Below, piece after piece: positions 5,201-58,503 of a stretch of DNA of 64,000 nucleotides. The DNA lies in assembly GCA_965235115.1 (NCBI GenBank), contig OZ249436.1, positions 31,126,001 to 31,190,000 of the forward strand, in the 5' to 3' direction. Each line of letters starts with the position of its first letter. Position 1 is the stretch's first letter. The stretch is from Laetmonice hystrix (Eukaryota). The position numbers and the translations under genes were made by a program. The notes under the pieces are model-generated. The model saw only the letters and a list, made by a program, of their open reading frames with translations, searched no databases and was not told the origin of the DNA.

Positions 5201-7930
5201 GCGATACGGTCAAAGAGTCGGTCTTGGTCCTCACGGCTCTTAGTTGGCTGAGAGAATGGAAGATAATACGCGTACTGGTTCACAATATTAAGAGTGACTA
5301 CCTTGGTATTTTAAATATAATCTTAATATAAAGCAGAAACTTTGTAACCCTCTATATATCATGTTATTACTAGACTATAATAGGGTCTAAAATACTGTAG
5401 GCCTACTGTATAAGGACCATGATGAAACATGCTTGTATAGTCTCAAAGTGTTCAAAAAGTGTTCATGTTTAGAAAGTTGCTTTCAGTTACCTGGAATAAA
5501 TCGATAAATATCCACCAGAAGGTGTCTTGCATGATAGCTATGGACGCCTCCGACTGGAAGATTTTCTTCCAAAATTTCTTGAATCCCGCCTACGATTTAA
5601 AAATAAAGAAGACAATTTACTGCTAATCAAGAGGTAAAGCCACGTTTTAATTTTATATTTTTAGTGTACTCTCACTCTTAAAACTGATTTTCTTAATTCA
5701 TGTGAGTCAAAAGTTTCTTTGTTTGGACTTACATATTGGGCCCAGTTATTCAAACCTTTGGACTATGATATTGGGCCCCGTTATTCAAAACTTTGGACTT
5801 ACAGATTGGGCCCCATGATTCAAATACCTTTGGACTTACATATTGGGCCTCGTTACTTAAACCTTTGGACTTACATATTGGGCCCCGTTATTCAAACCTT
5901 TGGACGTACATATTGGGCTCCGTTATTTAAACCTTTGGATTTACACATTGGGCCCCGTTACAAACCTTTGGACTTACATATTGGGCCCCGTTACTTAAAC
6001 TTTGGACTTACATATTGGGCCCCGTTACTTAAACTTTGGACTTACATATTGGGCCCCGTTACTTAAACTTTGGACTTACATATTGGGCCCCATTAACCTT
6101 TGGACTTACATATTGGGCCCCGTTACAAACCTTTGGACTTACATATTGGGCCCCGTTACTTAAACCTTTCGACTTACATATTGGGCCCCGTTACTTAAAC
6201 CTTTCGACTTACATATTGGGCCCCGTTATTTAAACCTTATGTTCTTGCTTAATCTTTATGAGGTCAACATCTATTACAAGAAACTATATATTTTGATTTC
6301 TTTACAGTGAAACCAAGAGATGGACAATGGCAAAAATATATTTCCTTAATTATTCATGCGAAAGAAAGCTCAGCAGTTCTCAAGGAAATCTATTGCACTT
6401 TTCTTCTCACTTCACTGTTTCCTGCTCTACCCTTCTAAAGTTTTAGGATGTTAGTTGCCTTACATTGAAATCCTGTGCTTTGGTTACTCTATTCAGGATC
6501 TGCGGCGCTTCCAACTGTCCAGGTAACTCTGGTAGCTCTCCCTGGCGGAAACCAGGGAAAGTGCAGTGTTCAACACTACGCTTCTTTGTTTCCAACAAAG
6601 ATTCCTTGAAATCCTGTTGGTCAAAGAAATGAAGACAATGTATTTCTAGAGCAACAGTATACTTTTTCGACAAATATTCTGTATACTAGTAATTAATGTA
6701 CCAAACCAATAATATTTGCAATGAATTGATATACATGCGTATTCAAGGAATAATCCACAAATATGAATCACCATTCTCTTTTTGCTCTTTCTCGAGGGAT
6801 GTGCTCTGACGGCATCAGATTCTTGTATGTCTGTCATGAAGGCTGCGAAAAGAAGCACAATTCTTAAAATTATTACAGAGTTTCACAAATTTGAAAAAAA
6901 AAGTTACCAGCTATAAAAAGGGCAGTTCCAATAACTATTTGTGTCAAAAATAAGTGAAAAAATGTGCTTCTAGTAGTTCTGCATATTAATGAGACACACC
7001 TCTGCCCGTTGACGGTAGGTGTTTCTCAGATGTGTCCTCCGACTTTCCACATGCATGATCAGGGACCACGATTCGGGAGGCATACATCTGGAGGCTATCT
7101 TCTAATGCCTGTAGTCTGGTCTCCAGGTTCGTTAAGCACTTCATATCGACCGCTGGGTAGATCTAAGTCAAGTTAAACTTTTAAAGGGGCCCAATTGGAA
7201 GAATCACACTTTCAAATGGCTTTTGGATCTTTTGTAAGAAGTTAAATGGTTACCTGCTTCTATTTGATGTATCCACATTTCTTTTCAAAAGAGAGGGAAA
7301 GTTTTAAGTAGAGAGAGAGATGATGATGACATCGTCAAGGATACGTGTTGCCTCACGCAGTTCTTTCATGATGACGTCTTGTGATCCCATGAGATCCTTG
7401 TCTTCATCCACTCCCATGAACTTCTCGGATGTCAACCGTAAAGGCCACTCATTCTGAACATTAGAGAATCATATCATGAGAGGTGTTATGCACGTCAATC
7501 CCTTGCCTTTTATGTAAGTCACTGCAGATTACTATGTTATCATCTGTGTTCTCATTAACAAAAATATTCTTAAGATGTCACTCAGCTGACCGCAATATTC
7601 CCCACACTGAAAAACATTCTTTAAAAGTTATTTTGTACAAGTGATTTTGATATAATTTTTTAAGGGGGGGGGGGGGGCACGCATGCGCGGGTTCACATAA
7701 CTTTGATAACATAGGTCTCAGTCTGAGGATGAACTTCTATTTCGAATTCAACATGTGAGGCTGGAACTCACCAAATGTTCTGCCTTGATGAAGTCGTCCA
7801 GGGTCAGGGGTGGTTTGGGCGGCCGATCTCCATCCTCAACGACACCTTTCTTCCCTTCTGCCGGGTTTGACTCATCCTTGTTCAGTTTGGACATGATGGC
7901 CAAGATCCTGGGGTCACTTATATCATCCAT
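2238..7930 (-). CDS. FAM227B: FAM227B-like (FWWh-domain) protein, multi-exon
   Basis: Minus-strand exons translate to motifs I recognise from FAM227B: PPLTLDDFIK (7772-7930), NEWPLR (~7350-7453), SVEHCTFPGFRQGELPELPGQLEAPQIL (~6463-6646), FWKKIFQSEASIAIMQDTFWW (~5491-5590), REDQDRLFDRIADSFVALF..KDKFFQ (~5140-5247), VYSDCLAQAVFSAFRESFPES (~4737-4863), SHQIGPGPELERTLFNLKGHSPLVAHYL (~3160-3313), a coiled-coil exon (2514-2645) and a last exon 2238-2297 ending in TGA. Some internal boundaries are approximate. Confidence 0.88.
4491..4700. mobile_element. Palindromic MITE with AG..CT ends in (C/T)TAA flanks (Kolobok-like)
   Basis: ~50-bp inverted arms AGCGCTGAACCCACCAAGGCGATTCCCCTTGCGACG.. / ..CGTCGCAAGGGGAATCGCCTTGGTGGGTTCAGCACT, flanked by CTAA and TTAA. 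Confidence 0.75.
5722..6237. repeat. ~34-35-bp minisatellite (TTTGGACTTACATATTGGGCCCCGTTACTTAAACC), ~15 copies, intronic
   Basis: Direct tandem units with small indels. Confidence 0.95.
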
Positions 7931-8221
7931 GGTATGAACAAGACGCCAGACTCACAACTCAAACACAATGTAGACTTCACTTGTTGTCAGTTATCTCTGG
8001 AACATTATCTTTATGTGCTTCTTTCTACTGTTCGATCTCTGCTTGGCTTTCGGTAATCTTGTTCTTAGTTTTCTCTCCTTTCACATTAAAGCTTCATTTG
8101 TGTTCACTGGTGGGATGTTACTTGGATATCACTCTACAACATGTAAATTATATGAGATACACTGAATGGAAGAAACGCTGTACATGCTGAAATTGTGTCC
8201 TATTCTAAGTAGTTATGTTAA

Positions 8222-8568
8222 GGAATAGAAAAGTTCCTCACTAACGTACCTTTGAACACAAGTAACACCATATAAAGTACGTGTCTAAGGTCACACCGAT
8301 AAGTGGAACACTGTCAACGGCGACTTTTTAAAAATACCGCCCGGGTCATTCGCTATTTCCCACGCGAGACAGCGGGAGCTATATCTATTAATAGATTGAG
8401 AGAGGGCCAAATAGGGTAAACAAACCGACGAAGCCAGCGGGAGAATGTCTCTACATTTCGGTTGATTATTCCTTTATTAAAGATCAGATAATCACAGAAT
8501 TGTAGGTAAGAACAAGCTTGTTCATGCTGAACACCCTTATATTGATAGTTTGAACTTTTCTATTCCCT
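8222..8568. mobile_element. TTAA-flanked MITE inserted into a ~36-bp tandem repeat
   Basis: TIR GGAATAGAAAAGTTC / GAACTTTTCTATTCC with TTAA on both sides. The unit GCTGAAATTGTGTCCTATTCTAAGTAGTTATGTTAA occurs once on the left and twice on the right. Confidence 0.7.
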
Positions 8569-10779
8569 TTAAAGCTGAAGTTGTGTCCTATTCTAAGTAG
8601 TTATGTTAAAGCTGAAATTGTGTCCTATTCTAAATAGGGGTTATGTTAAAGTTAACTTAATTAAACTTAGTCTCTTAACCATTCAATTTAGGCATTTTAA
8701 AGTTAAGAATTGTGATGCTTGCAAGTCAAAACTAGTATAAAAGTATTGTACTCTCATTGCATTGGTTTAAAGATCGAAGATAAGCTGTACACACAATGTA
8801 AAAGGTATGTTCAAAAAAAGATATTATTGAATTATTCACTTAAATAGTCATGAATGATGTTACAACCTATGGCTATGCAGCCAGTGAATATTGTTTACAT
8901 AGATCTTCTATATGTTTTTAACCCTTTCCAGTCTGGCCCAGTACCCTGCCAGGGGGCTGGGGGGTTTTCACCAGAAATTCCACAAAAAATTCACAAAACT
9001 TTGATATAATTGGAAACATGTTAGACTTTCAAAATAAATTATCATTTTGGAACGTGTTTGACCATTAGCCTTTGACCATTCAGCCCAGAATGATGGTTTC
9101 TTATCCCGTATGTGATACAGGAAATCATCATGCATTGCAACAAAAGTTAGCATTATAGCATCGCCACATCTGTTGAAAACACCGACATGCACGTCTACAG
9201 ACTAGGCTACACGTAACCTACCTGGAAGGCTGGATGGAATCTGTGACCTGTATCATTAAATAGTTAGATGTAATAAATGTTTAGGTCAGCAGGACAGAAT
9301 CATGAATCAGGAAGTCATGAGATACAAGTTATGGTTAATTTTCTTGAAGGTGGCGTACTGTAGATCATCTAGCTTCAAATTGTATTTTATCAAACCGGGC
9401 CCAGTCTAAACGGTGTAGTTTTATCTAGTGGAGAGTCAACGGCTCACAGTAACACTATAACTATAAGTATAACACAGTTACACTAACTTTTACAGTACAG
9501 TAACACCGGCCCCTACCCACACCTAGCTCTCCCCTGGCTGAGTGATACCTACTCAAAACCAGCACAGTAGGCCTACTCAGGAGGTCAAGTACAGTCATAG
9601 TTATACTCATTACTGATAGTGATACTCCCATAGCATAGACCATAGGCCATAGAGTCTAGGCCTACCACTGTGATTAGTGAGTGTAGGGGGAAGTACTGTA
9701 CTCAAGTTTGAGGCGGGCCGAGCCCGAGGAAGTGGCAGACACTGACTGGGACAGTGAGACTGAGTGAGAGAGAGCGGAGAGAGTACGAACTGTACGGTGC
9801 ACACAGTCTACAGACGTGTAAGTTAATAAGTAAGTATAATGTCAGTACTCCCAGGTGTTAGCCATTGATTCTCAATGACTTAAACCTGGATTCCTCGACT
9901 TACTTCAACTTGGTAGAGTTTCGATGCCCCGTTGTCAGGTACGCCCTAAAACTAGGTCAAGTAGGTCCCCGCGCCCTACAATAAAGAGACGTGAACCAGT
10001 CAGCAAGTGACCTATTTAATTAAGGTCTCACTACAGAGAGTATTATGACACGTGCTTGCAAAGTGACGTTCCAACTCATGGGGCAGATCTGTTCATATAT
10101 CATGATATCATCTAAGAGCAGCGTCTTTATGTGTTATCAGATTGTTCTCGCATACATTGGTCTCGTGAATGAAGTGATTGAGACTGAGTGTAACATCACT
10201 GACACTGATGCAGTGATGGCCTATCTCATTCTCACTGCCTGTGTCAGTGGGTGGTGTCCTAGCCAACTCGTCAGCTCTGTCTAGTGGTGTCCCTGCTTCA
10301 GTCAACACCCAAGGCCCAGGGCAGGAGTCCAGAGGCTGTCTACATGTAGTATCAGGCTTTAAACAGGACCAGCGTGTGACTGTCGAAACCCTCGATAACT
10401 GAAGTCCTAACCGGTCACTGCATGAGTATCAAACTTCAAACTCAAGTCAAAGACAAAGAGTGGCTCAGGCTCAGCAACACATCAACGATAGCTTCGCTCA
10501 GTTGATTTTTATAACTGGAAGGAGGCCTAATTAAGGTAATTGTGCATCGGATTTAACTTTTCTTAGTGCTCAACGTAGCCCCACATGGCCGACACAATCT
10601 AGTTGCATACATGGTGACCATGATGATCAGATGGTGATCATGATTGATCATTGAAACAACCCTCCCCCCCCGTGGGATTTAATTGAATAAAGGTAGCCTA
10701 CTAATTACAGCTAGTGGTGGATATGAGGGGGGGTACTGGGGTTGCAACTTCAAACCAAACACACCCCCCCCCCCCCCAC

Positions 10780-11965
10780 TGTTACGGCATATATTGTCGC
10801 CATGCATATTTTGTCGCCGGCGACAATATATATGCCAATGATATGTCCATGGCATATATTGTCGCTGCCACATAATGTCACCGGCATATATTGTCGCCAG
10901 CGACAATATGCAGAGAAATACAACACATATTGTCGATACACAGTTCCAGGCAGCGCAATTTGCAAATAGGGTGTTTGCAATGGGTAGGGTTCACTAGTCT
11001 AAGGGTTCACTGGTCCGAAGTGGTAACCCTAAAACCAAATATCAATAACCCTAAACCTAACTTTAACACTAAGCCTGTCGGACTAACGCCCCCCACCCCA
11101 AGTAAATGCCCCATTTTGCCCCATGTTCCCCTGCCATTGCCAACTGCTAACTTTGGACTAGTGAACCCTTGGACTTGTAAGTGGTTCGCGATTGGGGTTC
11201 ATCAAGTTCCAAATTTACCCGGCCAATTTAAAAAGGCAAACCAGCAGATACGGGTGCTACCTGTACGCCCCTCGATTAGGGTTAAGGTCTATTTGAATTA
11301 ACGCCCCACCCCACCCTCTCTCTCTTCCACACACTTCTCTTCCACAATGATCACCGACAACCGTACAGTAACCGGCGCTGGCGACAATATGCCAATGTCC
11401 ATGGCACATATTGTCGCCGGTGCAGTCCGCTATAGGGCGCCGAAGTCTCGCGGCACGGTTATGGATTTTCTGGATAGGAGGTGCAAATGGAGCGTCAATG
11501 TTGACACCCAAATGTTACGTCACAAATTTCCCATTGCTTTAACATAGGAGAAGAGACATCGTTCCAAAGATCGGCCTAGTCTTGAAGAGTTTCGTGTTCT
11601 TATGTCCTATCAAAATTATCTATTCAAGCATACAACAGGTTGATACAAATATCTGGGAAGGTTTCATTACAAAGGACAGCATAATTACAGAGAAATCACA
11701 AGTTGAAGTTGGCAGTCGCCGTTCCCTATGGGCGGCGCAATGCTAAACAAGCGTGAGCGATAATGAAGTGTCACCAAAACAGACTTTTATCGCGTTGTAA
11801 CGCAAGATCTTGTGACCTACTTCGGCTCCCTATATGGACCAACTCTCCCGGCACATATTGTCGCCGGCGACAATATGTGAAAATGGGCGGCAATATATGC
11901 CATGAACGTTGTTATATATTGTCACCGGCGACAATATATGCACGGCGACAATATATGCCGTAACA
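10780..11965. mobile_element. Non-autonomous TIR element with TGT..ACA ends (Ginger-like termini) and many ATATTGTCGCC/GGCGACAATAT subterminal repeats
   Basis: Left end TGTTACGGCATATATTGTCGCC, right end GGCGACAATATATGCCGTAACA. Flanked by C-runs, so the TSD is ambiguous. The superfamily call rests on the termini only. Confidence 0.7.
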
Positions 11966-13052
11966 CCCCTCCCGCCCCCCCCCCCCCCCCCCCCCCCCGG
12001 AACAAACTTGAATCTCTGCCTCTAGTTGGTATCGCATCACTTGTACACATATTATACACCTTGCTGGTGCAGCTAAGCAATCTGATTGGTTTATTGACGC
12101 TTTTCTTTGTCCCATAAACTGGATAGTTGACTCGCCGCCATCCAATATTTCTGCAATTGTACAGACTTACGGTAGTTATCTAATATTACATTTCTGTCCA
12201 AGAGGTGGATAATCATAATGGAACAAGTGAATAAAAGTAGAATCGATAATATATTCATGGATGAGGAAAAGGTCAAGCATGAGAAACTTTGACATTTGTG
12301 GGAAACAGAAATATACAGGAGACATTACAAAAGAAGGGTTTGAATTATATGATGCAGCTTATTGGACTATTGTTTTTGGTAGAAGTGTGAGAATTTTTGA
12401 AGAGATGAGGTTTTATTCATTTTAGATGATATATATGTTTAAATTGACTAGATTTTAAGATTTAAGGAATCTTATCTGTATTTTATTGCCATTCTATGTC
12501 TTTTGGAATGTAGAATATTATTATATTTTTCAGGAATAGATAACAGGGATGTCAAATCTTTGGTTGTAGTTCTTTATGCCTTGGCTAGATAACGGAGTTG
12601 AGATTGTCCAGGACAATACTAAATTGACCTGCGTGATATCTCCTTAACCTCCTTACACTCTTCTGTGGTCTGGATTTCTTGAAATTTATGTTGTGTTCAG
12701 CTCAAACTATGATTGCACTCTTACATCATAATGTTATCTAGCAGATAGTGTAAGGAGCTGTACATGAAATTTGCATGTATTTTTTTGCACACTTCTTTTT
12801 TTTGCAGTGGCACTGCTAAATTCTTAGAACTTTGACAAATCATGTATACATTTGTATGGGACACCCTGTATATAGTATATATCTGATAACCACACATACT
12901 TATAGATCATACTAGAAGGACCTGTAATGTCATGGGTACAGAGCATGCATCTCTTCATTTCCCCTAGCTACTTGATGCAAACTCTTTATCTACACGTATC
13001 AGACAGGTTAGAGGAGATACTGTACAAATGACAGGCCACTGACGACTTGACC

Positions 13053-16000
13053 ATGACAGAAAGTGTTGTGTTCTGTAGAGCCATGGCTGAGACACTGTTC
13101 ACCGACTTCTGGGACTGGCGGATGAAGGAGAGCCCCGAACTGGCCTCCTTCTGTGGCATACATAAATATGATGATAGACTTGATGATGTCTCCATAGCTG
13201 CCTATGAAAGGAGGGGTGTAAGTGTAACCTCTAAATGTTTTTTAATCAAAAGGTACGGAGCTCTTTTGTAATTTTTCATTTTTAGTGAATGACCTTCAAG
13301 CATTATTGATGCTTCCTGTGTGTATCGTAGATCTTATACAGGCCAATTTTTTACACTTGAAATGAAAAAATACTAAATATAGTTTATTCTGAAATTGCTC
13401 CCCTAGATAACAACAACAACAACCATTCATGATTACTCAACTGCTCCTTGATATTAACACTATAGAAAGCAGCTGAGGAGTTCTTGGCCCGTGGTAGGAC
13501 TCTTCTCTCCAATGAGGAGCTCAGTGTTACGGACCGGGACAGTGTCGCCATGCTGGTGTCTGATCTCGAGGTGTATATCAGAGGACTGAGATACCAAAGG
13601 TTTGTCATTCACATTGTGTGTCAGGCTGTGTTAAACAGAATTCGAAGCTGGTTCAACCACGGCATTGAAGCAAGTATTATAACGTTATATTGTTTGACCG
13701 AGGTGAATTATTGGCACAGATTTCGAGGGGTTTGATTTTTCCATGATTTTTCCAGTTTCCTGTTCCCAGTCAGTTATGCAGAAGGTATCCAGGTGGATTT
13801 TGAAATGTTCATATCATGGATGGACTTCAAGACAGTCGAGAACTTCAACACCTATATCTCGCGTCTCAGAGCACTGCCATTAAGGGTTTGTCATTTTGGT
13901 TTCTAAATTTATATGCAATGATTAAGGACATGATTAATTTCGTTTATGTGATTGTTTGCATTCCCAATTTATTTTCATTATTAGTTTATTTTTTGAAGGT
14001 ACAACAGGTTGAAGATAATCTCAGACAAGGCGTTAAGTTGGGTCTGGTACAACATCAACAGTCCATGGTAAGTTCCACCCAGATCCGACATGAACACGTG
14101 ACATGTTTGGGATACTCCCAATGATGCCAGTCAGATAGGGTAAAAAATATAATTTTTAAAAAAATCTGTCAAAATCAGCTGTAGCAAGAATCAACCTTTA
14201 AATCAGAGGGTCACATTTTAAGAAAGTAGTTTTGTTTAAATAATTTTTTATCTGTAAGCTGTCATTTGTCTTGTTACAATTTTTCAGGAAGGTGTCAAAG
14301 AAGAATTTGAAGTTTTGGGGAAACCGGTGGAAGAAGGTGTATTCTTTCAACCATTCCGAGATGCCCCAAAAGAACTTGATTTGTAGGTGAATTCATATTG
14401 GCAGGTGCTATTTCGACATCTTAATGTTAGAAACAAAATCGTGTGTGTAATACTTTACATCCGTACTCTATATTATTACAAACCATTTTAATATGTATCA
14501 ATAAAAGAAGGTACATTCCAGCATGACATACATACGTCATAGCAGGAGAACGTACGGTAAGCTTCTTTGAAAGACCATTTTGACACGTTGGGTACGTTTT
14601 TAATATCTTTAGAACGATTCAAATGGAAGAAGCGAAGAAAGTCATACGAAACGATGTTCAACCTGCATTCAAGAGGCTAAAAGACTACATAGAACAGGTT
14701 GGCATAGAGAACTTACATGCGATCCATAGCCCACCAACCCATCAAACATTGGTCGCGTGATATTGAGCCACAATAATAATATACATGTAGTATCTCTTTA
14801 TTTTACTTCGTATTTCTAAGTCACTTTGGAAACAGATACTGACATATCGTCTAGGTTTGCCTGGAATTCCGAAGACAAGGACTTTATAAATGATTTACGT
14901 CTGGGAGAGGGCGTGTCCTGCCTCCCCAACTTGTGAATGGACCCTTGTGTTGATTCCCACGTTTTGTTTTTAACAAGGACTATATGAAAGATTTACGTTT
15001 GGGAGAGGGCATGTCCTGCCTCCCCAACTTGTGAATGGACCCTTGTGTTGATTCCCACATTTTGTTTTTAACAAGGACTATATATGAATGATTTACGCCT
15101 GGGACAGGGTGTGTGCTGCTCTCCCAACTTGTGAATGGACCCTCTTGTGTTGATTCCCACGTTTTGTTTTTAACAAGGACTATATGAAAGATTTACGTCT
15201 GGGAGAGGGCGTGTCCTGCCTCCCCAACGGCCGCCAGTTTTATGAGGAGTGTCTGAGATGGCATTTGTCCTTGAACATGACCCCAGAACAGGTACACCAG
15301 TGTGGTTGGAAGGAGATCCACCGTATCAAGGAAGAGATGCAGAAGGTGAAAAAAATGTAGTCTCTGTTACTTGTTTTTTCTTTCTTTCTACTATTAACTC
15401 ACAGTATATACATATGGTTTTCAGTTGACAGTAACAGTAGCTGGAACAAGAAGTATGATCATTTACAGGTGAAGATGAGTACAAAGTAAGGGGAATATTC
15501 GGACCGCCATACATGTGTTAAAAAGTAGTATAGCATATAGAATGGGTCAATCCCACTACCATTTTTTAAACACTTTTTAAATATAAATTCAGTTTTGAAA
15601 TATAGTTTGTGATTGTTGTTTTGTGACATTGTCTATTATCGAGTTTGAAAACGTAAACGCTTACAGTACACGGGAAAAATGCGGTGATACCACCAAAAGT
15701 ATAATCTCAGGAAGTATGTTGTTTTTATTTTAGGTGATTACCAAGGTTGGATTTCAGGGCAGCTTCAAGGAATTCCTTGATCACTTGAGAGGCAGTGACC
15801 AGTTCTATTTCAAAGATAAGGTTTAGTATCCTCCATTATCCTATTTTATTTTCTTCCACGCATTCTTTAGCAAAAATCAGATATAAGCAGTAGCGGACTA
15901 GATGATTAGGGGGAAAACGGTCAAATATAGGGGATTGGTCATTATTATTTTTAAGTTATTCTACGTTTTCCCATTTCTTTCATTTGCATACGTAAAACAT

Positions 16001-19000
16001 GTATTACATCACTTGTTTCTCTTTTGACAGAAATCCTTGATGGAAGGTTACCGCCATACATGTGACAATATCATCCGTCCAAAACTTAGTCAGCTCTTCT
16101 ACAAAATCCCAAAGTCAAAACTCGCGTATGATTTTTTTGTTTCCCCCTCTCAATGTGTGTCTCATTGTCTGTCCATCTGCCCGTTTCTCTATCTGTCCCT
16201 CTCTCTGACCTTCGGAATTGGAGCAACATTCATAATATTCTATTGTGGTAAGTTGTCAAACGTGAAAAGTATTTCGAATTAGTAAAACTAGCCATAGCAT
16301 ACTCTTCATCCTTGATCTCATCCTGATGACATGTAGAATAGAGCCGGTGCCTGAATCACGGCCGAACGCCCCGGCCGGCTACTATCTGGCAGGGACACTG
16401 GACGGTTCCCGGCCCGGCAAGTTCTACGTGAGCGCTCACAACGTCAAGATGTGGTAAGATGACAGCAGCAGGCAGAACCATGTAGGTTAACCTGTGTCGT
16501 TGTAGTATCTTTACTCTATCTGGTGGCGGGGCTGGTCTCGGGAATAGATTGTTGCACAGCATCAGGCCGTTTGGAGTATCTTATCGGTGGCTGTCGAGCA
16601 TGTCCTCGGAATAGGAATCGGAAGTGTTTGTATTATGTACCTTTTTTGTAATAGGACAGGATTCAGATATGTAGAAATGGACCTTTACTGAATGACAAAA
16701 AAAATCCATTATTTTCTAAATAGCTTGGATGTTCAGTGACGTATAAATCAAATTTTTGCGTCTTTCTGCTTACCATAGCCCGAAATATGAGATGATTGCA
16801 CTCAGTCTCCACGAGGGGGAGCCAGGGCACCACTTCCAGGTCGGTTACAGTGGGACTACAGTAGGAATAGCAATATCAACACTGCAGTGGTAGGGAAGGA
16901 GGCTCCCTCTACCGTTAAATAATTGTGACGCTTGGCCTTTAGAACCGGTGCCTCTACAGTGGACATGTTAAAGCTTTGAGTGTGTATTTGTTTTGTAATG
17001 CAGGTATAATATACTACACGTTCATACGATATATGACCAATAGTAATAGTTTTAACTACGTGAGATTAAACACCATTTGTTTCATGAGTTTATGTATGCT
17101 GTACATGTACTTGTTGACAGGGAATGTTCGCCATTGAAATGAAAGGTCTGCCCATGTTCCGGCAATACGTGGAGGACATGAATTACTTCTGTGTACCATC
17201 AAGGTTTCCCCTTCACACCGCGTACTGTGAGGTGGGTCTCACCTTCCTGAACATCACTATATTATAAGTGTTTTTAAAACGTTTAAGAAGCTAGAAGGTG
17301 ATTGCGAGTATAGATCTCCATTATGAGGCCCCACCCTGCTCCTCCACTCCCCTCCCCGGCCCGCCGGCTGCCGCCTCCCCTACCCGACATGGGGAGCGAA
17401 CCCCCTTAATACCTTTAATTAAAAAAAAATAAAAATCAGGTAAGGCTCGGAGTTAAATCTCTATCCTGGCCAGCCGCCTTTCCAGTAGACATTTTTACAA
17501 TTACGCTTCTTTAAGGTTAATGAAAATAATAACTGATAATATGACTCACTGGTACAAACAGTTGTACACATATGCTATATAGTGCTACATGAGAAGTGCT
17601 CATCACCTTTGACGTTGTAGGATATACATTTGTAGATGTTTTATATATTTACACTTTTAACTTATTTTTTTTACTATAGAACACTTGTCGAACAAGTTGA
17701 GTCTGAAATAAAGGAATTGAATTGAATGATGATGCATGATGGGAAGTTTTTCATAATCTCCTCTCGAACACACCCACATACAAAAACTTTACTTTCAGTA
17801 TACCAAAGAGACTACTAGTATGTATTCACTATACCATGGCCCCTGATTGCAGGGTTGGGGGTTGTACTGCGAGTATCTGGGTGAAGAACTCGGTCTCTAT
17901 GATGACCCGTACGCCATGTTTGGTCACCTCTCCCTCGAGATGCACCGAGCGTGCCGCCTGGTGGTGGACACAGGTATCCATGCGTTCGGGTGAGCCCTTC
18001 ACTTAAACATTTGTCTTTCTGTTTCCTGTACCTCAGTGATGATGGTGTTGATTAAGTAGAGGGGAAAATAAAGTATTCAGGGTGGGATCTTTGGCCGGCA
18101 TTATAGGAGCTGATCTTAGAGTTGCAGCAATCTTTAAATAACCCTATGGTTTAAATGTGTTATTTTCAGGATTTATCCATGGTTTGAATTTAAGTTCTAG
18201 TTCTTTTATATAGTATTCTCCCCACCTCTATAAGATATTTTCTCCATTTTATAAACGTGTTTAGGTGGAGCTTTGAGAAAGCCAAATCGTTGTTGATGGA
18301 GAACACGGCCTTGGGCGAGGCGTTCATGGACAGTGAGGTCCGGCGCTACATCACCTGGCCAGGACAGGTAGACCTATACTTGACATGTAATGTATTATTG
18401 TGGGCTTAAAGATCCTTAGATTCATGCCTGCATGTTAAAATTCAAATGCTGCGTGAGCGCTCTGCAGATGGGTGATTCTACGGTAAATGAGCAAATCGGT
18501 GTCCAAGCAATAGAACCGTTCCCCAGAGCCACCATAATCTTATAATTACATTAATTTTACCATAGCATGCCAAATTATGAACATTTTAAGTGAAAAGCAA
18601 TTTGTTACAGCTAAAACTTATGTGTGTCAGTCAGTTTTTCACAGTCAAAGGTATAGCTTGTGACCCCAAAACCCCATGTCCCGACCCAGGGGTGTTAAAA
18701 TTTATGTATTTTTATTTTCATACAACTCATGGTTATTCCCATGCTTTCATCGTTTTTTTTCAATAAATTATGATACTGAAGGAAACCACAAACCGGTCTC
18801 AGGTCACACATTTCATACAACTCCATAAACAGACACAGAAACAGGAGAAAACTGTGTCCAAGAGTCTGCTGTCATTACACTAACAGCCTACATTGAACAT
18901 CGCCATCTAGTGATCAACTGATAAACGAATGGAGTGACGTCACAAAAATCAATACGTCAAGAAGCGCGAGTTGGCGAGGCGGCAGATTCGAAGGTATGTC

Positions 19001-22000
19001 TGCAGATTTTCTCACAATTTCATGATTTCCTCAAGAGGTCTTGGCCGAACAGTTATTGTATGTCATTACACAGCACTCATACACTTTGATGGTCCTACAT
19101 ATCTGGTGACAAAAGGCTGTTTTGTATACTAAGATCGTGGTCATCTTCTTGGTAAACAACGTCGCGGTTGAATCAAGTCAGCCATTTTGAGTTTATGGGG
19201 CGCCAAGTTGTAAATAGGTCATTACACAAACAGTCATTACACTAACTGAATATCTGTTGGTGTAATGACCACTTTTGTTTGTGTAATGACAAAACTTCGT
19301 TTGAGTAGGTTTTATGTAATAATTTCTTAGTGCCTGGCAACAGGAATTTTACGTTGCTAAACATGAAAGTCCACTAGTTTTTACAAATTATTTTCACTTT
19401 CCTTATAAATAAACTTAAGTGATTAGGACCGTTGGTTAGTGTAATGACTGACTGTGTCATTGCGACCGTTAGTGTAATGACTGAGCCTACATCACAGGCA
19501 ATGATGAACACACTGAATCTGAGCAGAATAAAATACATGTACAATACAGTGTATGCCTGTCTGATAATTGCTCTCTTTTTTTGCAGATGCCTCCGAAAAA
19601 TACGGTTGTCACAGCGTCGGCGATGCGCCACCGGAAATATTTAGAACAAATAAAGAGTGATCCAGAAGCCCATGCAAACTACCTCCGTAAACAACGAGAA
19701 AAATACCAAGAACGTAAAAGGAAGGGTGAATTGAAATCCATCAAAGAAAGAACCTCACGGGATCAACGAAAACAACGTAGAGCTTGGCGTGTAAACCAAC
19801 AAAATTCTCGTAAATCAAAACAAAAACAAACTGCTGATTTGACACCTCCAGCCACTCCTGGGGATGATGGTACTGTAAATGTTGCAGTGGTCCAGCAGCG
19901 CCCTCGCGGTCGTCCAAGGACCAGAGACCCATCTCGTTCAAAGGCATACAGAAAGATAGCTCAGCTTGAAAATACCCTCCGTGAGAAGGAAAGATCGATT
20001 GCGAGGTTGACCAAGCGTTGCCAACGTCTGAAACAAAATGTCAACACAAACAGCACACCACGAAGCAAAACAAGGGCCTTGATGAAAAGTACTAAACCCG
20101 ATGATGTCAGGCAGGTGAAAAAAACACTTATTTTTCACCATGCTCTGGCTGATGACATGGCGAAACTGAAGACGACAACGAATGGACAAAAGAAGTTAAT
20201 CCAGACGTTAGGTTTAAAGCTCGTGAAAAAGTATCGCTGTTGTAAAATCATGCGTGAGTCAACTGGTATTGGGAGGCGAGTTCAAGAAAAACCTTTCCAC
20301 AAGAAGCATAGGCTGGTTGAGAAGAGTAAGGCCATGAGGGAAGCTGTTCATACATTCCTTGACAGGGACGATAATTCTAGAATGTCTTCGTGTAAAAGGC
20401 ACCATGTTGGTAACAAGCAGGTGCGATTTCTCTCGCATAGCCTAAAACTTCTGCACCAGAAGTACCTTTCTGAAGCAGAAATCAAAGTGAGTCGAGCCTT
20501 CTTTTATCGCAATTGTCCGCCCCAAATCCGTAAACCAACGTTGCAGGATCGAGAGGTCTGCGTGTGCAAACAGTGCGACAACTTTACAATGAAGCTTGAG
20601 GCACTTCATCGCGAAAAGGTTGTTTCAAGCAGTGACCCAGAGGATTTCATTAAGTCGTTGGTATGCGATGACACCAATCAAGACTGTATGTATGGCAACT
20701 GTAAAAAATGTGCCAAGGGGGCAAAAATTGGTAAAAATATCACGACGGCAACAGAGGTTGACAGGGTGGTGAAGTGGTACGAGTGGGAAAACGTTAATCA
20801 CGCCTACACTGCCAAAGACGGCCACAAAAAAAGCACCAAGCGTACACAGAAAGTGCAGAAATCTTCTTCACTGAAAGCTCTCGTCACTCTCGCAAACAAA
20901 TCTTTAGGCCTCATCATGAAACACCTTTACCGCGTAAATCATCAGTACCTTGCTATCAGGAGCCTGAAGACCAACCTTGGTGATGACTCTGCACTTTTAC
21001 ATTTTGACTTCTCGGAAAACTGGGCATGCAAGTACGCCAAAGAAATAACAGCAGTTCACTTTGGGGCATCACAGCAACAAGCTACTTTACATACGGGACT
21101 GATGTACACTTCACGCGGGGCTGAAGCATTTTGCAGTGTTTCTCCATCCGGTGTCCATGATGCGACTGGTGTTTGGGCTCATCTAAAAGCAACATTGGAG
21201 TACATTAGAACGGCATATCCGAATGTGTCAATGCTGCATTTTCTTAGCGACAGCCCAAGCTCACAGTACAGAAACAAGTCATCATTCTACCTCCTCTGCA
21301 ATATCCCGAAGTCACTTGGCTTTGGTTCTGTAACGTGGAACTTCCTCGAGAGTGGCCACGGCAAGGGCGCAGCCGATGGCATTGGGGCAACAGTAAAACG
21401 GACGGCCGACCAGTTTGTATCAGAAGGCATGGATATCCCAGATGCCAAGGTACTTTTTGAGAAACTCTTGCTTCAAAACCATTCCGTCAAGTTTCTCTAT
21501 GTGACTCAGGACAACATCGAGGAAATGGCAAAGCTCCTCCCAAAAGACTTAAAAGCATTCCCAGGGACAATGTCATGTCACCAAGTCTGGCCAGACGCGG
21601 AAAATGCAACTCCATCAGATGGGGACATTTTCCTCAGGGATCTCAGCTGCTATTGTTCTGATGATATCAACCAACATTGCGACTGCTACAGACCAAAGAC
21701 ATGGTGTCTTCGAACATTCAAGCAGCTTGAAAGTTCAAAAATACGGCGGCTTGAATCTGAAAACCCAGCTCTAATAGAACCTGCAGACGATGCCCCAGAG
21801 AGAGAAGTCTCCAATGCTTGCGATCGTTTGTCAGCCAACATGTTGCCGAAGGAAACTGATAACGTAGCCATGCATCCAATCAGTCACCAGGATGGTCTTA
21901 ACGAAGTGTCAGCAGGCCAGAGAAACGTGAGAGCAGTAGTGGCCATAGTGCATCGACAGGATGATCCTCATGTTCCTCCGACATGCGCGGGAGAATACCT

Positions 22001-24427
22001 CAATCACAGAGCCGACCTCTCCCTTCAGTCCCTTCCCACCACATCCAAAAAGGATTCGAGTGGAAAAATGGCTAGCAAGATGACTAAGAAACAATGCACC
22101 AAGCGTTCCAAATCCAGACCTACCCAGTCCGTGAAGCCCACTACTACTGCTAGTAATGATGATAATCCCCAGTGTCTTGTCTGTGACGAATTTTACAATG
22201 ATTCAGCACCAGGTGAAGAGTGGATTATGTGTAGTATTTGCGAATGTTGGGCTCATGAACAGTGCACTTCTTTTGACGAAACGCAGTCAAAAACATACAT
22301 ATGTGACATGTGTGACTAGTACATACATAGTCGTGTGATTTTCCAATGGCGTTGGTCTTCAGCAGGACATTTGTTACCAGAGTCGTTAGGGGCCATTCAT
22401 GTACACATAGACGTCTGGATTTTCAGACGCCCTCTCCCCAAACACAGAAAAATGGTAAAAATGTACAGGTAAATGTACATGCCTTCGCAAATGACCCCCG
22501 AAATACTCAACCCCGCTCCCCCTCAGATGTGTACATACTATAAAATGAATGGCCCCTTGGTCTTTAGCAGGATATTTGATTGCCAGAATCAGGACATTTG
22601 ACTGCAAGAATCGTTGGCGAAACTTACCTGAAACGTGCAACCTGTGTCAAGTTTGTCTACAAGCTGAAACATTTCAAAACACCTGAAACGATGCACTAAT
22701 TTGTATCGACTCCTCATGAGTCATTCCTATCGCATGTCACAGACTTTTGTTCTGATTTCTGAATGAAAACATGAAGCAATTTTGTAACATGTCTCAAACA
22801 TGCCAAAAGAAATGTCCAGAAAATTTCTTGAAACTTCGTGGAAACAACTTGGAAATTGTTTCAAGCTGTATCCGAAATGTTTCATAGTGACATGTTTCCA
22901 AAGATTTCAGGGAGTTTAGAAATGTTTCAGATCAGACCAAATTATTATATGACCCTATTTCATGTCGTTCTCCAATTACATGCTGTTACCTTCAACCATG
23001 TTCACTGTTCACTAGTTTTGTCGTTCATTCAATTAAAAATACATGTACATGTTGTACTTGGTTTATTGAAATGCTAGTATCCAGACTCCAATTTCTTCAC
23101 TCTTGATAAGCCTACGAATAGGAGCCAAGTTCACTGACAGTCCATCGTGGCGCAGGCTTACACCCTGTGACAAATATCATGAATATATATGCAGACCTTC
23201 GAGTATTATGGACCAGATGAACGCAGCCCCCCCCCCCCCGCCGCTACAGTGACCAGTGACGACGCTAGTAACACGAATAAGGGTAGATGTCATTACACAA
23301 ACGGAGAAGTCACTACACAAACTGAGAGTCATTACACAAACATTGCAATGAAATCATCTGAACAGGAAGTAATATTTTTCAATCTAAAAATGAACTGTTT
23401 GTTCTGAACCAGTGGCAACAACTCCAAATAACAGAACACTTGCCTAGACACACACAGCCTTTAGTTTGTTGCCGACTATGATCAGGATGCTGAATTTAGC
23501 ACCAAATCTGGTGTAACCTTTAGTCAACTTCTGATATATCTTAAAATACTGCACAACAAGTAGGATTCGGTCTTTGACCATTAAATACATGGTGAAGCTA
23601 TGATAAAGCACCTCTTTTCTTTTAAAGAAATCGACAATTAACATTTTTTTTGTAGCTTAGAATATTCATATTTACTAGTTTGTGTAATGACATTTTCAGT
23701 TTACACAAACGGACACAAGCTTAAATAATGACCTTGACCTTGACCTTAATTTTTGCCCATTGGTATTTTTGAAAACTTAGCCCTCATATGGAGTGATATA
23801 TCTGCCCCCTAACATCAAACTGATGGATTTTATTTTCACACTTCTGAAGTGTAATTTTGCTCATTTACCATAGAATCACCCAGATACATGTTGACCGTCT
23901 AGGGGTTCACTTCTTTCTTTTCTCTTTCCCAGGCGTGCGCATATAAGATCGGTGAGCTGAAAATCAAGGAGCTGAGGAGGCGTGCCGAGGAGGAGCTAGG
24001 TGAGCTCGCTCTTTAAAACAATGAGTTCAGTCAGTCTGACAAAGGGTGCGCTCATTTATCGGCTTGGATAGAAGCTGCGTAAAAAATACTTCTTGGATGT
24101 GATAGTTGTAAAAAGGTATAATCAATGGAGCCTATTTGTTAAAGTCACTCGAAACCCCAACCTCCATAATTATCGCATTGGCAAAGCCAGTTACAAGATT
24201 AAGTGGGCATTGTCTTGTATGGAAACAGTCCATTCAGCGTTCTAATCCCCACATTGTTCACCTGTGACAAAGCACAGGATAATATTGGTGACATGTCTTT
24301 CCCCTCGGTATCAGGCATGCGATTCGACGTCCGCGACTTTCACGAAGAAGTGCTGAAGTGTGGAATGGCTGCCATGAGTGTGCTGGAGAAGACCATAGAT
24401 CGCTACATCCAGAAACAGACGTCGTGA
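13053..24427 (+). CDS. DUF885-family putative zinc metallopeptidase, 16 coding exons, ~578 aa
   Basis: Exons 13053-13217, 13466-13599, 13756-13885, 13999-14067, 14288-14382, 14613-14697, 15178-15345, 15734-15820, 16031-16125, 16337-16453, 16779-16839, 17121-17231, 17853-17989, 18265-18367, 23933-23999 and 24315-24427 join in frame at GT-AG sites. DUF885 motifs: [95 protein letters not shown]. Confidence 0.92.
14876..15228 (+). repeat. ~100-bp tandem duplication of an intron/exon boundary (3 full acceptor copies plus 1 partial)
   Basis: Unit TTGTGAATGGACCCTTGTGTTGATTCCCACGTTTTGTTTTTAACAAG|GACTATATGAAAGATTTACG..CTCCCCAAC is repeated. Only the last copy continues into the DUF885 reading frame. 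Confidence 0.92.
18470..23881 (+). mobile_element. Sola2 DNA transposon, full length (5.4 kb), in a DUF885 intron
   Basis: TIR GGGTGATTCTACGGTAAATGAGCAAA / TTTGCTCATTTACCATAGAATCACCC (1 mismatch in 26). 4-bp TSD AGAT at 18466-18469 and 23882-23885. 5'-GRG termini plus a 4-bp TSD are Sola2 traits. Confidence 0.88.
19587..22319 (+). CDS. Sola2-type DDD transposase (910 aa) with AT-hook-like RPRGRPR and C-terminal PHD finger
   Basis: Uninterrupted ORF. Motifs [18 protein letters not shown] and [17 protein letters not shown], Cys clusters, and C-terminal [27 protein letters not shown] (C4HC3). The ATG directly follows a polypyrimidine-CAG acceptor. Confidence 0.9.
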   Translation: MPPKNTVVTASAMRHRKYLEQIKSDPEAHANYLRKQREKYQERKRKGELKSIKERTSRDQRKQRRAWRVNQQNSRKSKQKQTADLTPPATPGDDGTVNVAVVQQRPRGRPRTRDPSRSKAYRKIAQLENTLREKERSIARLTKRCQRLKQNVNTNSTPRSKTRALMKSTKPDDVRQVKKTLIFHHALADDMAKLKTTTNGQKKLIQTLGLKLVKKYRCCKIMRESTGIGRRVQEKPFHKKHRLVEKSKAMREAVHTFLDRDDNSRMSSCKRHHVGNKQVRFLSHSLKLLHQKYLSEAEIKVSRAFFYRNCPPQIRKPTLQDREVCVCKQCDNFTMKLEALHREKVVSSSDPEDFIKSLVCDDTNQDCMYGNCKKCAKGAKIGKNITTATEVDRVVKWYEWENVNHAYTAKDGHKKSTKRTQKVQKSSSLKALVTLANKSLGLIMKHLYRVNHQYLAIRSLKTNLGDDSALLHFDFSENWACKYAKEITAVHFGASQQQATLHTGLMYTSRGAEAFCSVSPSGVHDATGVWAHLKATLEYIRTAYPNVSMLHFLSDSPSSQYRNKSSFYLLCNIPKSLGFGSVTWNFLESGHGKGAADGIGATVKRTADQFVSEGMDIPDAKVLFEKLLLQNHSVKFLYVTQDNIEEMAKLLPKDLKAFPGTMSCHQVWPDAENATPSDGDIFLRDLSCYCSDDINQHCDCYRPKTWCLRTFKQLESSKIRRLESENPALIEPADDAPEREVSNACDRLSANMLPKETDNVAMHPISHQDGLNEVSAGQRNVRAVVAIVHRQDDPHVPPTCAGEYLNHRADLSLQSLPTTSKKDSSGKMASKMTKKQCTKRSKSRPTQSVKPTTTASNDDNPQCLVCDEFYNDSAPGEEWIMCSICECWAHEQCTSFDETQSKTYICDMCD

Positions 24428-24467
24428 AAGCTAGAATTCGTTCTGGGCAGGTGTGACAAACTTCTAA

Positions 24468-24697
24468 AGCCAACACACACACTGCGATTACCCGTCGCAC
24501 GACGGTCTCACGACGGTCCGTCGCTATGGCAATGAGTGGCCTGCAACAGCCTGCGACCGTCGCAGACGTTCTGACAGTGCCAGAACCTCTGCGACAGTCG
24601 CAAGACTCCATTCTGTCCTGTGCAGATGGGCTTGGGTCAAAATCTGGGTCACGACGGTCGCAAGGAGTTGCAAGCAGTCGCAGTGTGTGTGTTGGCC
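24468..24697. mobile_element. Harbinger/Tourist-like MITE in the DUF885 3' region
   Basis: TIR AGCCAACACACAC..TGCGA / TCGCAGTGTGTGTGTTGGCC, with internal GTCGCA/TGCGAC repeats. Confidence 0.65.
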
Positions 24698-26009
24698 TTG
24701 GTATTATAATTATATCTCGATATATAAAGATATACCTCTTTACTGATATGTCTTATATGCCACTAAGTAAAAGAACTGGGACTTGCTTACACAAGGAATC
24801 AGGTGTAGCAGACCTCCAGCCAGACAAACTTACATTCCTTTTACACCTGTAGGCTGCTGAGCACTCAGGTGTAATAAATTAATAGTACTAGATTATTCCC
24901 CCACAGTGCAGGCATTTGACAGGTCTGGACAGACGACTGCCAACAACTACACCTGAAACTGATTATAGAAGTGAGCATACTAAAAGAAAGTAGGCCTGTA
25001 GTTTGGGTAGCGACATTGACTGTCAGACTGAGAGCTATTTTAGCTCTAACATTCCTCTGATACCTGCATACCTTTATATCGTAAAATCGTATCAACATAA
25101 TTCTCTTTAATCATTCGAGTTCGCCTTAGTGTCATTCTGGTTTTAGGATTAAGCTTTCCATGCATGCTTGTCTGTGCAGTTATCTTCAGGCAATTTCACT
25201 GGTCTTTAAAATGATAGGCCAAATGCTTTTAACTGAAAAAGTATACGTATTTTGTACTCAGTATTTTCAGTATGAACCTACATCCAACACTTTTATTATA
25301 TTATAAGTAACCTTTGGTTTTAATCAAGTACTGAAAACCGCATGTTTCACCCTGAGACAAGGAAGAGCCAGCTAGTATTCGTGCCTGTCGTCGGCACACC
25401 GTGTGTCCATGTTGAAAACTTAAACCGAGGGTTTGAAACAAACCGGTTTCAGGCCAACAGGTTTCCGCGACCAAAATTTACCTACCTAATGGGGCGGCTT
25501 ACTCGCGGTCTGTGTATGTACGGGCCGAGTTTGTGGTGGTTTCACTCTGAAATCTGAACACCCGACTTGGCGCGGTATCAATTCTTCAGTTGTCACACTC
25601 TCATGTCCGTCCCCACCCGACACAGTCACAAACTACATCAACGTGTGAGCAATATACGAAGCCTTCATAAACTTTGCCAGGTATAATTAATATGTTAATT
25701 ACCGGTACATGAAGTACCTTAGTGAATGGAGAGACATTTTGATATTACCATGCTAGGATAACACTTCTACACCATGCACAGGCCTTGTGAAGTTTCCTCT
25801 GAACAACTATAGTAGGATTTATCGTTAGGTCTTTCATAATGTGTATTTGTGTGACTGAGATACATATCAAATGACTGCTGCTATGGGGATAACACTTTCG
25901 AGCGGAACATGCTATTCACATGTTAATAACTGTTTGAGATTATACGTGTACATACTTGTCATCGCCCCAGTGGAATGAATGAGCTGTGATTTAATGTGTT
26001 TAGCGAGCC

Positions 26010-26129: not shown

Positions 26130-27527
<1,398 letters not shown>

Positions 27528-31551: not shown

Positions 31552-34500
31552 CTATGTTACGCTGTTTTCCCCTACAGCTGGCGCTGCAGTAAAGTTTAAG
31601 ACCGCCGTGTGGTCGAATAGCTGTCCTAAAGTTGTACCGACTTTGACTTTGCTTGCAGTATGGTACAACTGTGTCGTTGCTTTGGGTGGATGCGTCGTCC
31701 TTGATATTCTTTTAGTTGTTTTAGTCGTCCTTATTGTTTTCGTGCTGAGAGTTTTTGGTGCCGTGGTCCTGCTAATGCGTCGTGTTGTAGGGACCTGGGT
31801 GCGCAGGGGCCGCCGGTTAAAGGGGCCGGAAAAGTTGACCAGTATGCGGGTGTACAATGGTAGGCGGTCAATGGACTCGAGGTTATAGGTCAATGTATTC
31901 AACCCCTCTTTGTCGTAATCCGCTGGCTTCAGCCACTTCCATGCCTTGTTGCTGAAAATAAAGAACATACCAACTGATGTAGATTATAGAACTATTATGT
32001 ACGCAGTGCCTACATAATACGTTTGGGGCTAATCGTATAGAGCCTATTGTGCACCACCTAACTTAACTAGGACCTATAATAGGCTTACAACCTGATGTGG
32101 ACCTATAAATGAGCTAATTCATGAGCTGATGTGGACCTATTGATGAGCTAACAATCTCTTTAATAATCGATTGCACTGAATCTCCTGTTTTTGCACCAGA
32201 TATAGCGTCCCGAGATCTATTGACTTAATATTAATCAATATTATGTTCGGCAAGAAATAGTTTGACCTTGAGTTCCAGACACCACCTACCTGTGAGGGTT
32301 GGTTGGGTTACCCTTGTCTCTCTTATGTGGGACCATATAATAATAATTAATGGTCGGGTGCCTAACGACAGCCAGCTTACGAGTCCTTACCCTATTGAGA
32401 GTCAGAATAAAACACGGTCAATATCGACTTAAGTTACACTGCGTGTACACATCATAATGTATATAGGTCTACAAACATGTGTTATTCCACATCACAGACA
32501 CGTCACCATATCCATACACATCGACGTGAGCACGTGTAGTTTGTGGCCAGGTAAATATAAACGGACAAAGCCAAGCTGGCCGACCTGAAAGGACAAATAT
32601 AAAACCCAAAAAAGCGGAATATCGATCTATAGAGGCATTATATTATAGGCCTAAATCTATAATACCACGCAGTATAATACCATTGGGTCATTTTTGGTCA
32701 CATCACATGTTTATAATAGATTTATTTTGTATAATATAATATTCTAACAATTCCATGACACCCTTTTCTGGAAAGAATAGACGTACATATGATATTGGGG
32801 GGGGGGGGGGTCAAGATATACAAAAGGATGTCAGACCGTACTTCGGTTCCTTTTTAAAGGCGCTATGGCTACGAAGCGCGTAGCCTGCTGTGGACCACCA
32901 TTTCCGATGTCCCTGCATGCATCCGCCCATGGCTGAGTTCACGCGCATGCAAACATTAGGCATGCATTATATAATACGACTTTCTCATATTATAAGACCA
33001 TGGCATTCAGGTCAGAAACAGTTCATCGATTTTTGCTGACCTCGGGAACAGCCACGTCCTGCCATCAATTCGGCCCGTGGTTTGTCGCAAGCCATTGAGC
33101 AATCGTCGTACCTGTGCGCGTGCCGAATGACAAAACCGTTGTGTAAACACTGCAAATCAATGGTGGCAGAGCCAGTCCCATCTCAAGCGCAACCAATTCA
33201 GTTTTGTCTAAAGCTGATGCATGGAAAGCCTATGTTATAAGCTGGAAGGTTTCGTACACGTATACGACGCGTTGCATGCGATAAATTGCCACTTATCTCT
33301 ATAGGGCCTATATCCAGATCGATAGCTTCAGTCGTCATCCAATTGCATCATTGTGTTGTTCAATATATAGAACCATTGCAGTTCAATTAAATACAACAGG
33401 CGTACTTTACCTAATCAAATGATGCAGAAAATTAATCAACTGGGGTCTAATTAAACTCATGTTTTTCAGAGACAGACTCGGTCAAGTGGCTAGGTTATCA
33501 AGTAAATCTTTTAGGATGTAGTAAAATATAAATTCGGCATACGTTTATAGCCTCGCGGTTCACTTGAACTGTTTGACATGAGAAATTGGGCTAAAAATTA
33601 GGCGTACGAAGGCATAAGACTGTGCAGACTTAAAAACGATCCTTAAAGTCGGGACCGAAAGAAGGAGCAAAACACCAACTTGTACGTGAAAAGGAATCAA
33701 GAATATTTAGATTATATGGTTATAATAATATGAGAAGTTGTTTCACAATTATTATTTCCTTCCGATTTTGTGGACCGACCGGTTTTCTCCCCCGGACAAA
33801 GTGAAAGTCGGCCGTTCACAAAATATATCTTTTATCATTATTATGTATACAGGTATCAAATCAAATCTGTGATCATGAATCGCCGCTTTTATATGTGCAG
33901 ATGATTATCTTGGACGATAACATGCCAACTGCAAGATTCCAGCCTGCAGTTTTCCGAACAATACATTATTGATGTTTGGGTAGTGACACGTCGTTGTTAA
34001 GCTGTGTGGTTTCGTCACATGGAGGTTCCGTCTGTATTTATGAGTAGCAGCTACTCCAACTCTGTCAAACACAGCAGGAACCTGGAGTGTCCTCGACCTC
34101 CATTGGGTCTAGCACGGCAGTATTCCTAACTCACGAATGGTCGCGATTTTGCCTTTCCTTAATTTAATCGACGGCAGGCATTTTAGTAGTGGTTTTATAT
34201 CAAATAAATAAATACTTTAATACAATATTCTTGCTCAAATCTCTCGTAAATAGCAATGAGCGAAAGCCCGTTGCAATCGATGATGGCTATATGAGGAGTA
34301 TGTCATTACGTGGAAATATGGGCGATATGAGCTTGTATAACTTAGTGAAACCGCTCTCAGGACTTATATTTTGGGAGTCCGTTTTCCTTAGATTCAAGGA
34401 GGTGTGGTAAATATAAGAAGAAGTTGTGTCCATTTTGTGTAGCACTATATGACAGTAAGAATACGCAGATATATTATAGTAGAATTACATACCTGTGAAA

Positions 34501-58108: not shown

Positions 58109-58503
58109 ATTTCAATACCCTTTAATGGTATTATAGGCATGTTTGTTATCGTGTAACAAAATGTAGCAAGAGTAACTACTGTTGACTCCACTGCATGAGG
58201 TGTCATGGATGTTTGACCATGGTAACCCAAAGTGTGTGATATGACACGTCTCTATAGTTCTCAGTATAGCCATATATATATATAGGCCTAGGGGGTGTAT
58301 TTTCTAGCATGGTAACATGAGGAGGGGGTTGAGGTTCCGTAAAGTGTTAATTTAATAAAGTGTTAAGTATAACTTAACATCGATTCTTCTGCAACAATTA
58401 TACATTAACGTTTAACATCTCATTTTGAAGTGCAGAGAAAGAGTAAAAGATCATATATTTCCCAATGTCTGTATTTCTCAAAGTCAATGTTGTTTCGTCA
58501 TTA

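Follow-up and report, generated by a model that had tools for sequence, protein, structure and literature searches.

A gene of the DUF885 family (PF05960) and a DNA transposon inserted into it were analyzed in a window of 64,000 nucleotides, i.e., the whole stretch of DNA under study. The gene has 16 exons (13083-24427) and encodes 568 amino acids, and its model is open throughout. In a Pfam scan the PF05960 profile was matched by exons 7, 13 and 14, and exon 14 covers positions 449-482 of the 532 profile positions. DUF885 is placed in the Peptidase_MA clan in the available text of PMC12572635. The host part contains HEGEPGHH and EGWGLYCE, i.e., HExxH and a downstream Glu, upstream of the end of exon 14, and, judged by its sequence, the gene product is probably a peptidase. 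Intron 14 harbors a 5,412-bp Sola2 element in sense orientation (Table 1). This location directly after exon 14 had been reported in a preliminary description of the locus, and the coordinates given there proved to be correct.

Three further observations concern the host gene. The Pfam name of DUF885 is bacterial, and at least nine intron-containing loci are present in this animal genome (on contigs including C1, C8, C10 and C20). A 98-bp tandem repeat (3.6 copies, 14875-15228) copies the exon 7 acceptor together with the start of the exon, so that decoy acceptors precede the true one. Lastly, an inverted-repeat element of 234 bp (24466-24699) begins 38 nt past the DUF885 stop codon. The contig depth in this bin was 6,600-12,500, and the element is probably an abundant MITE in the DUF885 3' UTR.

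Table 1. Features of the DUF885 gene and of the Sola2 element in its intron 14 (positions in the window).
Feature	Position	Strand	Remarks
DUF885 coding exons 1-14	13083..18367	+	509 aa; in-frame ATG at 13053 adds 10
Exon 14 of the DUF885 gene	18265..18367	+	phase 0 end ...WPGQ, GGA CAG/gtagac; donor CAG/GTAGAC
Left target-site duplication AGAT	18466..18469	+	empty-site skip of 5,416 equals element plus one copy
Sola2 DNA transposon	18470..23881	+	sole family copy with unbroken ORF in the assembly
Left terminal inverted repeat	18470..18495	+	26 bp, begins GGG; 25/26 complementary to right repeat
Subterminal GTCATTACAC-type repeats, both orientations	18871..19484, also 23286-23343, 23678-23696	.	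repeat families D1, D3, D4, D6
Putative promoter of the element and end of its 5' exon	18935..18999	+	TGACGTCA palindrome 18935-18942; donor AAG/GTATGT 18993/18994
Element splice acceptor	19566..19586	+	directly 5' of ATG; found in 9/9 copies
Sola2 transposase ORF	19587..22319	+	910 aa, intact; integrase/RNase H core about 451-635
PHD-like C-terminal finger	22173..22313	+	aa 863-909, C4HC3 pattern
Right terminal inverted repeat	23856..23881	-	26 bp
Right target-site duplication AGAT	23882..23885	+	
Host 3' splice region	23886..23932	+	intact, all 3' of element; 17/17 pyrimidines; strongest acceptor of the intron
DUF885 exons 15 and 16	23933-23999, 24315-24427	+	last 59 aa, from ACAYKIG; absent from fusion

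Sola2 elements begin with 5'-GRG, and the ends of the present element fit this terminus. Its subterminal repeats are likely to be transposase-binding sites, and the palindrome in its candidate promoter is one that we take to be CRE-like. The hexamer AATAAA occurs at 18762, 19408 and 19527, in all three cases in the left arm upstream of the element acceptor. Between the transposase stop codon and the end of the element no AATAAA was found, and only ATTAAA is present, at 23032 and 23580, the nearest 713 nt past the stop. The PHD finger that had been assigned to the C-terminus has the expected cysteine and histidine pattern, but its Pfam score (E=0.0034, 17.8 bits) is under the curated cut-off of 24, and structure prediction modelled it at low confidence only. 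It recurs in family L025/L026 and in two of the 120 listed database relatives.

An intact Sola2 transposase had been claimed, and the conserved residues agree with this. The DDD triad (D474, D555, D597) is invariant across 29 aligned relatives. Compared by eye, the transposase and the supplementary Sola2 alignment of PMC3627910 have the conserved blocks DFSEN, HFGAS..Q.T.HTG, SD.P..QYRNK and GHGK..ADG.G and the preceding Cys cluster in common, and the nearest Repbase-type rows are Sola2-1_Hrobusta and Sola2-1_BM. The 4-bp duplication, the short terminal inverted repeats and a size in the range of 2-9 kb are shared with Sola2 as characterized in the accessible literature, and DDD transposases and 4-bp duplications are given for Sola elements in the available text of PMC10741241. 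A Sola model is absent from Pfam. In a predicted model of the transposase (pLDDT 68), residues 451-635 match the catalytic cores of retroviral integrase, IstA and mariner with a best Z of 8.9. The superpositions with ASV/RSV integrase and IstA had Z 8.9 and rmsd 3.0-3.6 with 138-150 aligned residues, and a Foldseek search with the model gave no match under E 0.001 (best E 2e-3). At E<=0.001, 597 transposase relatives were found. The 120 listed ones share 34-42% identity with the transposase in its core, and those named among them belong to molluscs, insects, a sea star, a spider and fish. The present element differs from Sola2 relatives by its finger, rare among the 120 listed, and by the residue after D555, which is Ser here and usually Gly according to the consensus of 29 sequences. 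Because even the best of the listed relatives reach only this level of identity, the element represents a new family within Sola2, of which a single copy is intact. A Sola2 relative of 1,096 aa (P0044) combines an OTU protease domain with a PHD-like end, and its sequence suggests that C-terminal cargo may be exchangeable within the Sola2 group.

The assembly contains nine left-arm copies of the family, which are 97-100% identical. The left arms (1.1 kb) of eight aligned copies are only 0-9 substitutions apart, two of them being identical, and the family is therefore young. The 4-bp duplication was perfect in five of the eight copies with both ends read, two had one mismatch and one had two mismatches. 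Seven short, non-autonomous copies (L016-L022; contigs C1, C2, C8, C11, C20 and C30) kept 1,118 bases on the left and 577 on the right, and their ORF has been swapped for 1 kb of arm sequence from a different abundant repeat with GGG ends, with the switch point at the shared TTTTGCAGA. That the short copies break at the acceptor through selection was considered and rejected, as the donor repeat shares TTTTGCAGA at this position and microhomology explains the break. In the short copies the retained acceptor is followed, in phase 0, by 13 codons and a stop, so that an intronic copy would act as a truncating trap.

A second long copy (L023/L024, C11:28697605-28706620) has a 1-nt frameshift in the transposase, and an insert of more than 3.6 kb with inverted ends is nested at element position 610. 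This insert contains a reverse-transcriptase-like frame of 430 aa. The changes specific to this broken copy comprise eight non-synonymous and two synonymous ones in addition to the frameshift. The ORF in the window, compared to the contigs of the sequencing runs, has three differences, all of them synonymous. As far as can be judged from these sequences, this shows that the ORF is constrained, which fits an active transposase and is equally compatible with use as a fusion exon. In the whole genome there are 101 Sola2-type transposase matches, with many families that have long frames and several that are present in three to four similar copies. One further locus (L037, C3:2873900-2882900) has a transposase frame of 945 aa that is directly followed by another open frame of 901 aa.

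Contigs of three runs were used to analyze whether the insertion is present on all chromosomes. The runs represent one sample, possibly the source of the assembly, and the contigs are of unrecorded kind and behave as genomic DNA. A precise empty site was found in all three runs: the contigs join 18464 to 23881 and skip 5,416 bases, so that intron 14 of the empty allele has 149 nt. The insertion is therefore not fixed, as seen in the three runs of this one sample. The preliminary description had named a rare silent polymorphism as an outcome that would speak against its reading, and of this the polymorphism is seen in the DNA contigs. At four flanking sites (18198, 18212, 18228 and 18328) one run had the letter of the window and another run a different letter, and thus the sample carries two haplotypes here. 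The haplotype of the window is likely the filled one. The site is probably heterozygous; a contig of the flank-element junction was not among the contigs listed. Over 1,790 host bases, 11-15 differences (0.6-0.8%) separate the window from the empty-site contigs. This divergence is higher than that between the element body and its contig, with five differences in 3,783 bases. Contig depth yielded rough copy numbers but was set aside, because depth in contigs does not measure copies.

For exon 14 a phase-0 end at 18367 had been stated, together with a strong phase-0 acceptor at 19586/19587, and both statements held. The acceptor reads ctctctttttttgcag/ATG (ending in ttttttgcag), and the ATG of the transposase follows at a distance of 0 nt. 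With an acceptor model trained on the 14 other acceptors of the DUF885 gene (15 acceptors of one gene overall), it ranked second of the 339 AG sites of the intron with 7.4 bits; the host acceptor had 10.1 and the next site 3.8 bits. In a leave-one-out comparison it outscored 14 of the 15 host acceptors. The donor AAG/GTATGT at 18993, which had been proposed as the end of the element's own 5' exon, was the top-scoring donor of the intron. It lies 593 nt before the ATG and about 50 nt past the palindrome, and its context is exact in eight of the nine copies. Together, donor and acceptor have the layout of a putative short untranslated first exon followed by one intron.

The survey was extended to other Sola2 families. 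For this, 20 of the 101 transposase matches of the genome were taken for long open frames; two were duplicates, and the remaining 18 together with the window gave 19. Where the open frame begins, acceptors scored higher than in flanking windows (p<=0.1 in seven of the 19 cases; combined p 2e-7, for windows that are not independent). A cleaner test was restricted to 12 families whose homologous N-terminus has a start Met, picked by eye, and excluded seven without such a Met. In 11 of these 12 families, an acceptor of at least 2 bits lay no more than 25 nt from this Met, compared to 7% of the other left-arm ATGs. Compatibility with a phase-0 donor was seen in seven of the 12, with AG/ATG exactly in three, and candidate upstream donors were present in eight. 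Among the seven fetched frames without an N-terminal Met, several seem to require an upstream coding exon. By eye, several database relatives have mis-called N-termini that resemble translated acceptors. In the available text of Cosby et al. (bioRxiv 10.1101/2020.05.07.082677), the acceptor was supplied by the transposon in eight of nine traced fusions, and transposons are described to bear such sites for their own expression. The acceptor thus belongs to the gene of the transposon itself throughout the family, and no host fusion has to be invoked to explain it. The element acceptor is beyond chance; the phase match is not. The phase match is cheap, because phase 0 accounts for 64% of the intron bases of this gene (9 of 15 introns).

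The predicted fusion was assembled in silico. The join of exons 1-14 to the transposase ORF is free of stop codons and gives 1,419 aa from the ATG at 13083 or 1,429 aa from that at 13053. The 519 host residues that had been reported are thus obtained with the upstream ATG, and 509 with the downstream one. Both zinc-site motifs are kept in the host part, as had been claimed, and the host acceptor at 23933 is indeed about 4.3 kb further away (4,346 nt beyond the element acceptor). The DUF885 domain is, however, incomplete in the predicted fusion. The join ends at PF05960 position 482 of 532 and splits the motif PGQ/AxxYKxG, and AxxYKxG...LR is lost. The 150 listed DUF885 relatives contain 99 instances of the motif, in which the positions following PGQ are occupied by Ala in 92, Tyr in 92, Lys in 88, Gly in 93 and Arg in 90, and the PGQ-AxxYKxG motif is retained in all four paralogue stretches. 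The predicted fusion would retain the zinc ligands and lack the motif Tyr together with the rest of the last 59 residues. This Tyr is presumably catalytic, as we assume from gluzincin peptidases. A structure search with exon 15 alone did not find a DUF885 structure. A peptidase-Sola2 chimera, as proposed earlier, thus has an open in-frame join, but the term probably overstates the host part, because a motif conserved at 89-94% in DUF885 is removed.

Database proteins of this architecture were also searched. The 120 listed of the 597 transposase relatives were free of DUF885 domains, and the 150 listed of 2,435 DUF885 relatives gave no transposase match. More than 100 extra N-terminal residues were seen in only two of the 120 listed transposase relatives. 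When 25 of the longest among these 120 were scanned against Pfam, one OTU domain and no host domain turned up. Longer fused proteins (1,594-4,550 aa) were absent among 4,451 candidates, which is weak evidence. One DUF885 protein of 1,367 aa (P0222) was considered as a fusion and rejected, as its tail is ankyrin-like.

Taken together, the locus is probably a young, segregating insertion of an autonomous Sola2 transposon, for which a fusion mRNA would be at most a by-product. The transposase would be expressed from the element's own promoter near 18.9 kb with splicing from 18993 to 19587, and this splice would explain why an acceptor is present at the ATG. The pre-mRNA of the insertion allele would mostly be spliced from 18367 to 23933 over the 5.6-kb intron, since the host 3' splice region is intact and stronger. 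An mRNA joined from 18367 to 19587, if any, would be a minor by-product, and the protein encoded by it would have a DUF885 part that is cut within a conserved motif and would not be selected as a fusion. In Drosophila, according to the available text of PMC11462757, validated intronic insertions led to intron retention instead of chimeric mRNA, and chimeric TE-mRNAs were infrequent.

The element might instead be a working exon trap at its birth, in which a sizeable share of the DUF885 transcripts is spliced to the element and ends at the ATTAAA at 23032 or 23580. The allele would then lose the normal DUF885 product and make the 1,419-aa fusion, still unselected, which may bring host-driven expression to the transposase. 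The strong in-phase acceptor, which is 4.3 kb nearer than that of the host, and the open join argue for this, the first two steps would be shared with KRABINER and CSB-PGBD3 as described in the available texts, and the at least nine DUF885 loci could buffer the loss. Yet the host acceptor is intact and stronger by the scores given above, and a terminal exon of more than 2.7 kb requires a poly(A) site, for which only non-canonical signals are present downstream. Onward splicing from 22468 would put the stop codon 149 nt before the junction, and by the usual rule such a transcript is a substrate for decay. We regard this reading as unlikely. It is equally doubtful that the insertion allele makes an abundant DUF885-Sola2 fusion mRNA, i.e., that a fusion was caught while polymorphic beside the empty allele in one animal.

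The insertion could also damage or silence the allele without a fusion, by transcript ends at the AATAAA signals of the left arm, by intron retention, or by silencing that includes the 3' end of the gene. These signals precede the element acceptor, the insertion point is only 47 nt from the host acceptor, and intron 14 is stretched from 149 to 5,565 nt, compared to 113-621 nt for the other introns of the gene. However, AATAAA is common in AT-rich DNA and the host 3' splice signals are untouched. We regard this explanation as quite improbable. A domesticated and selected fusion gene like CSB-PGBD3, the precedent invoked in the preliminary description, is highly improbable, because, in spite of the intact ORF with its exclusively synonymous differences, the precise empty allele largely refutes it, the acceptor belongs to the element, the family is young and mobile and its ends are intact, and the combination was absent among the listed relatives (120 of 597 and 150 of 2,435).

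The locus was compared with CSB-PGBD3 as described in the available text of PMC2268245. Both elements are intronic in sense orientation and in frame with the upstream host exon, and the distance between acceptor and ATG is 7 nt in CSB-PGBD3 compared to 0 nt here. CSB-PGBD3 has a poly(A) site about 130 nt past its stop codon, whereas here no canonical site follows the stop. For CSB-PGBD3 the fusion mRNA and protein were shown, whereas the present fusion is a prediction from DNA. CSB-PGBD3 has been conserved for 43 My and its other copies decayed; in contrast, the present insertion is polymorphic and its family young. The present element, unlike CSB-PGBD3, has its own candidate donor and promoter. 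Of the steps that Cosby et al. (bioRxiv 10.1101/2020.05.07.082677) describe, insertion into a gene (step i) and a transposon acceptor are found here, whereas splicing (step ii) and selection (step iii) are hypothetical for this locus. The host parts of the fusions treated there are mostly regulatory (e.g., KRAB), in contrast to the cut enzyme predicted here. The word 'sola' is absent from the main text of that study. A literature search in titles and the starts of abstracts, with most subscription journals and Repbase Reports outside its coverage, yielded no Sola-derived host fusion. On present evidence the locus is not a member of the class of host-transposase fusions; it is raw material for a fusion gene.

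Sense, in-phase intronic insertions are expected by chance, given that there are so many young elements in this genome. To our knowledge, the known host-transposase fusions are old and fixed, and we know of few cases in which a fresh insertion with a ready acceptor was caught at the first splicing step. The value of the locus is that exon trapping at its birth can be tested here in an allele-specific manner, as the probably heterozygous site offers an internal control for splicing to a fresh insertion. The acceptor at the ORF start in Sola2 families extends a property that was described for piggyBac, mariner and others. If the fusion mRNA were abundant, Sola2 would be a general, overlooked class of exon-trapping elements in invertebrates, given the acceptors in 11 of 12 families. 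In addition, the intact, recently mobile transposase with its defined ends is a candidate for the first activity assay of this little-studied group.

Several other features were seen elsewhere in the window. Shortly 3' of the DUF885 gene there is an intronless beta-tubulin ORF of 446 aa (26187-27527). A Harbinger-type transposase (55226-58965, with PF13359 at 57500-58105) is split by introns; this locus also has a convergent second frame (58504-58965) and, by eye, an in-frame TAG near 57425. On the minus strand, two open frames are present (31552-31983 and 36092-36736). Neither of the two matches Pfam alone, and they read like what we presume to be exons of a membrane-anchored, Thr-rich glycosyltransferase.
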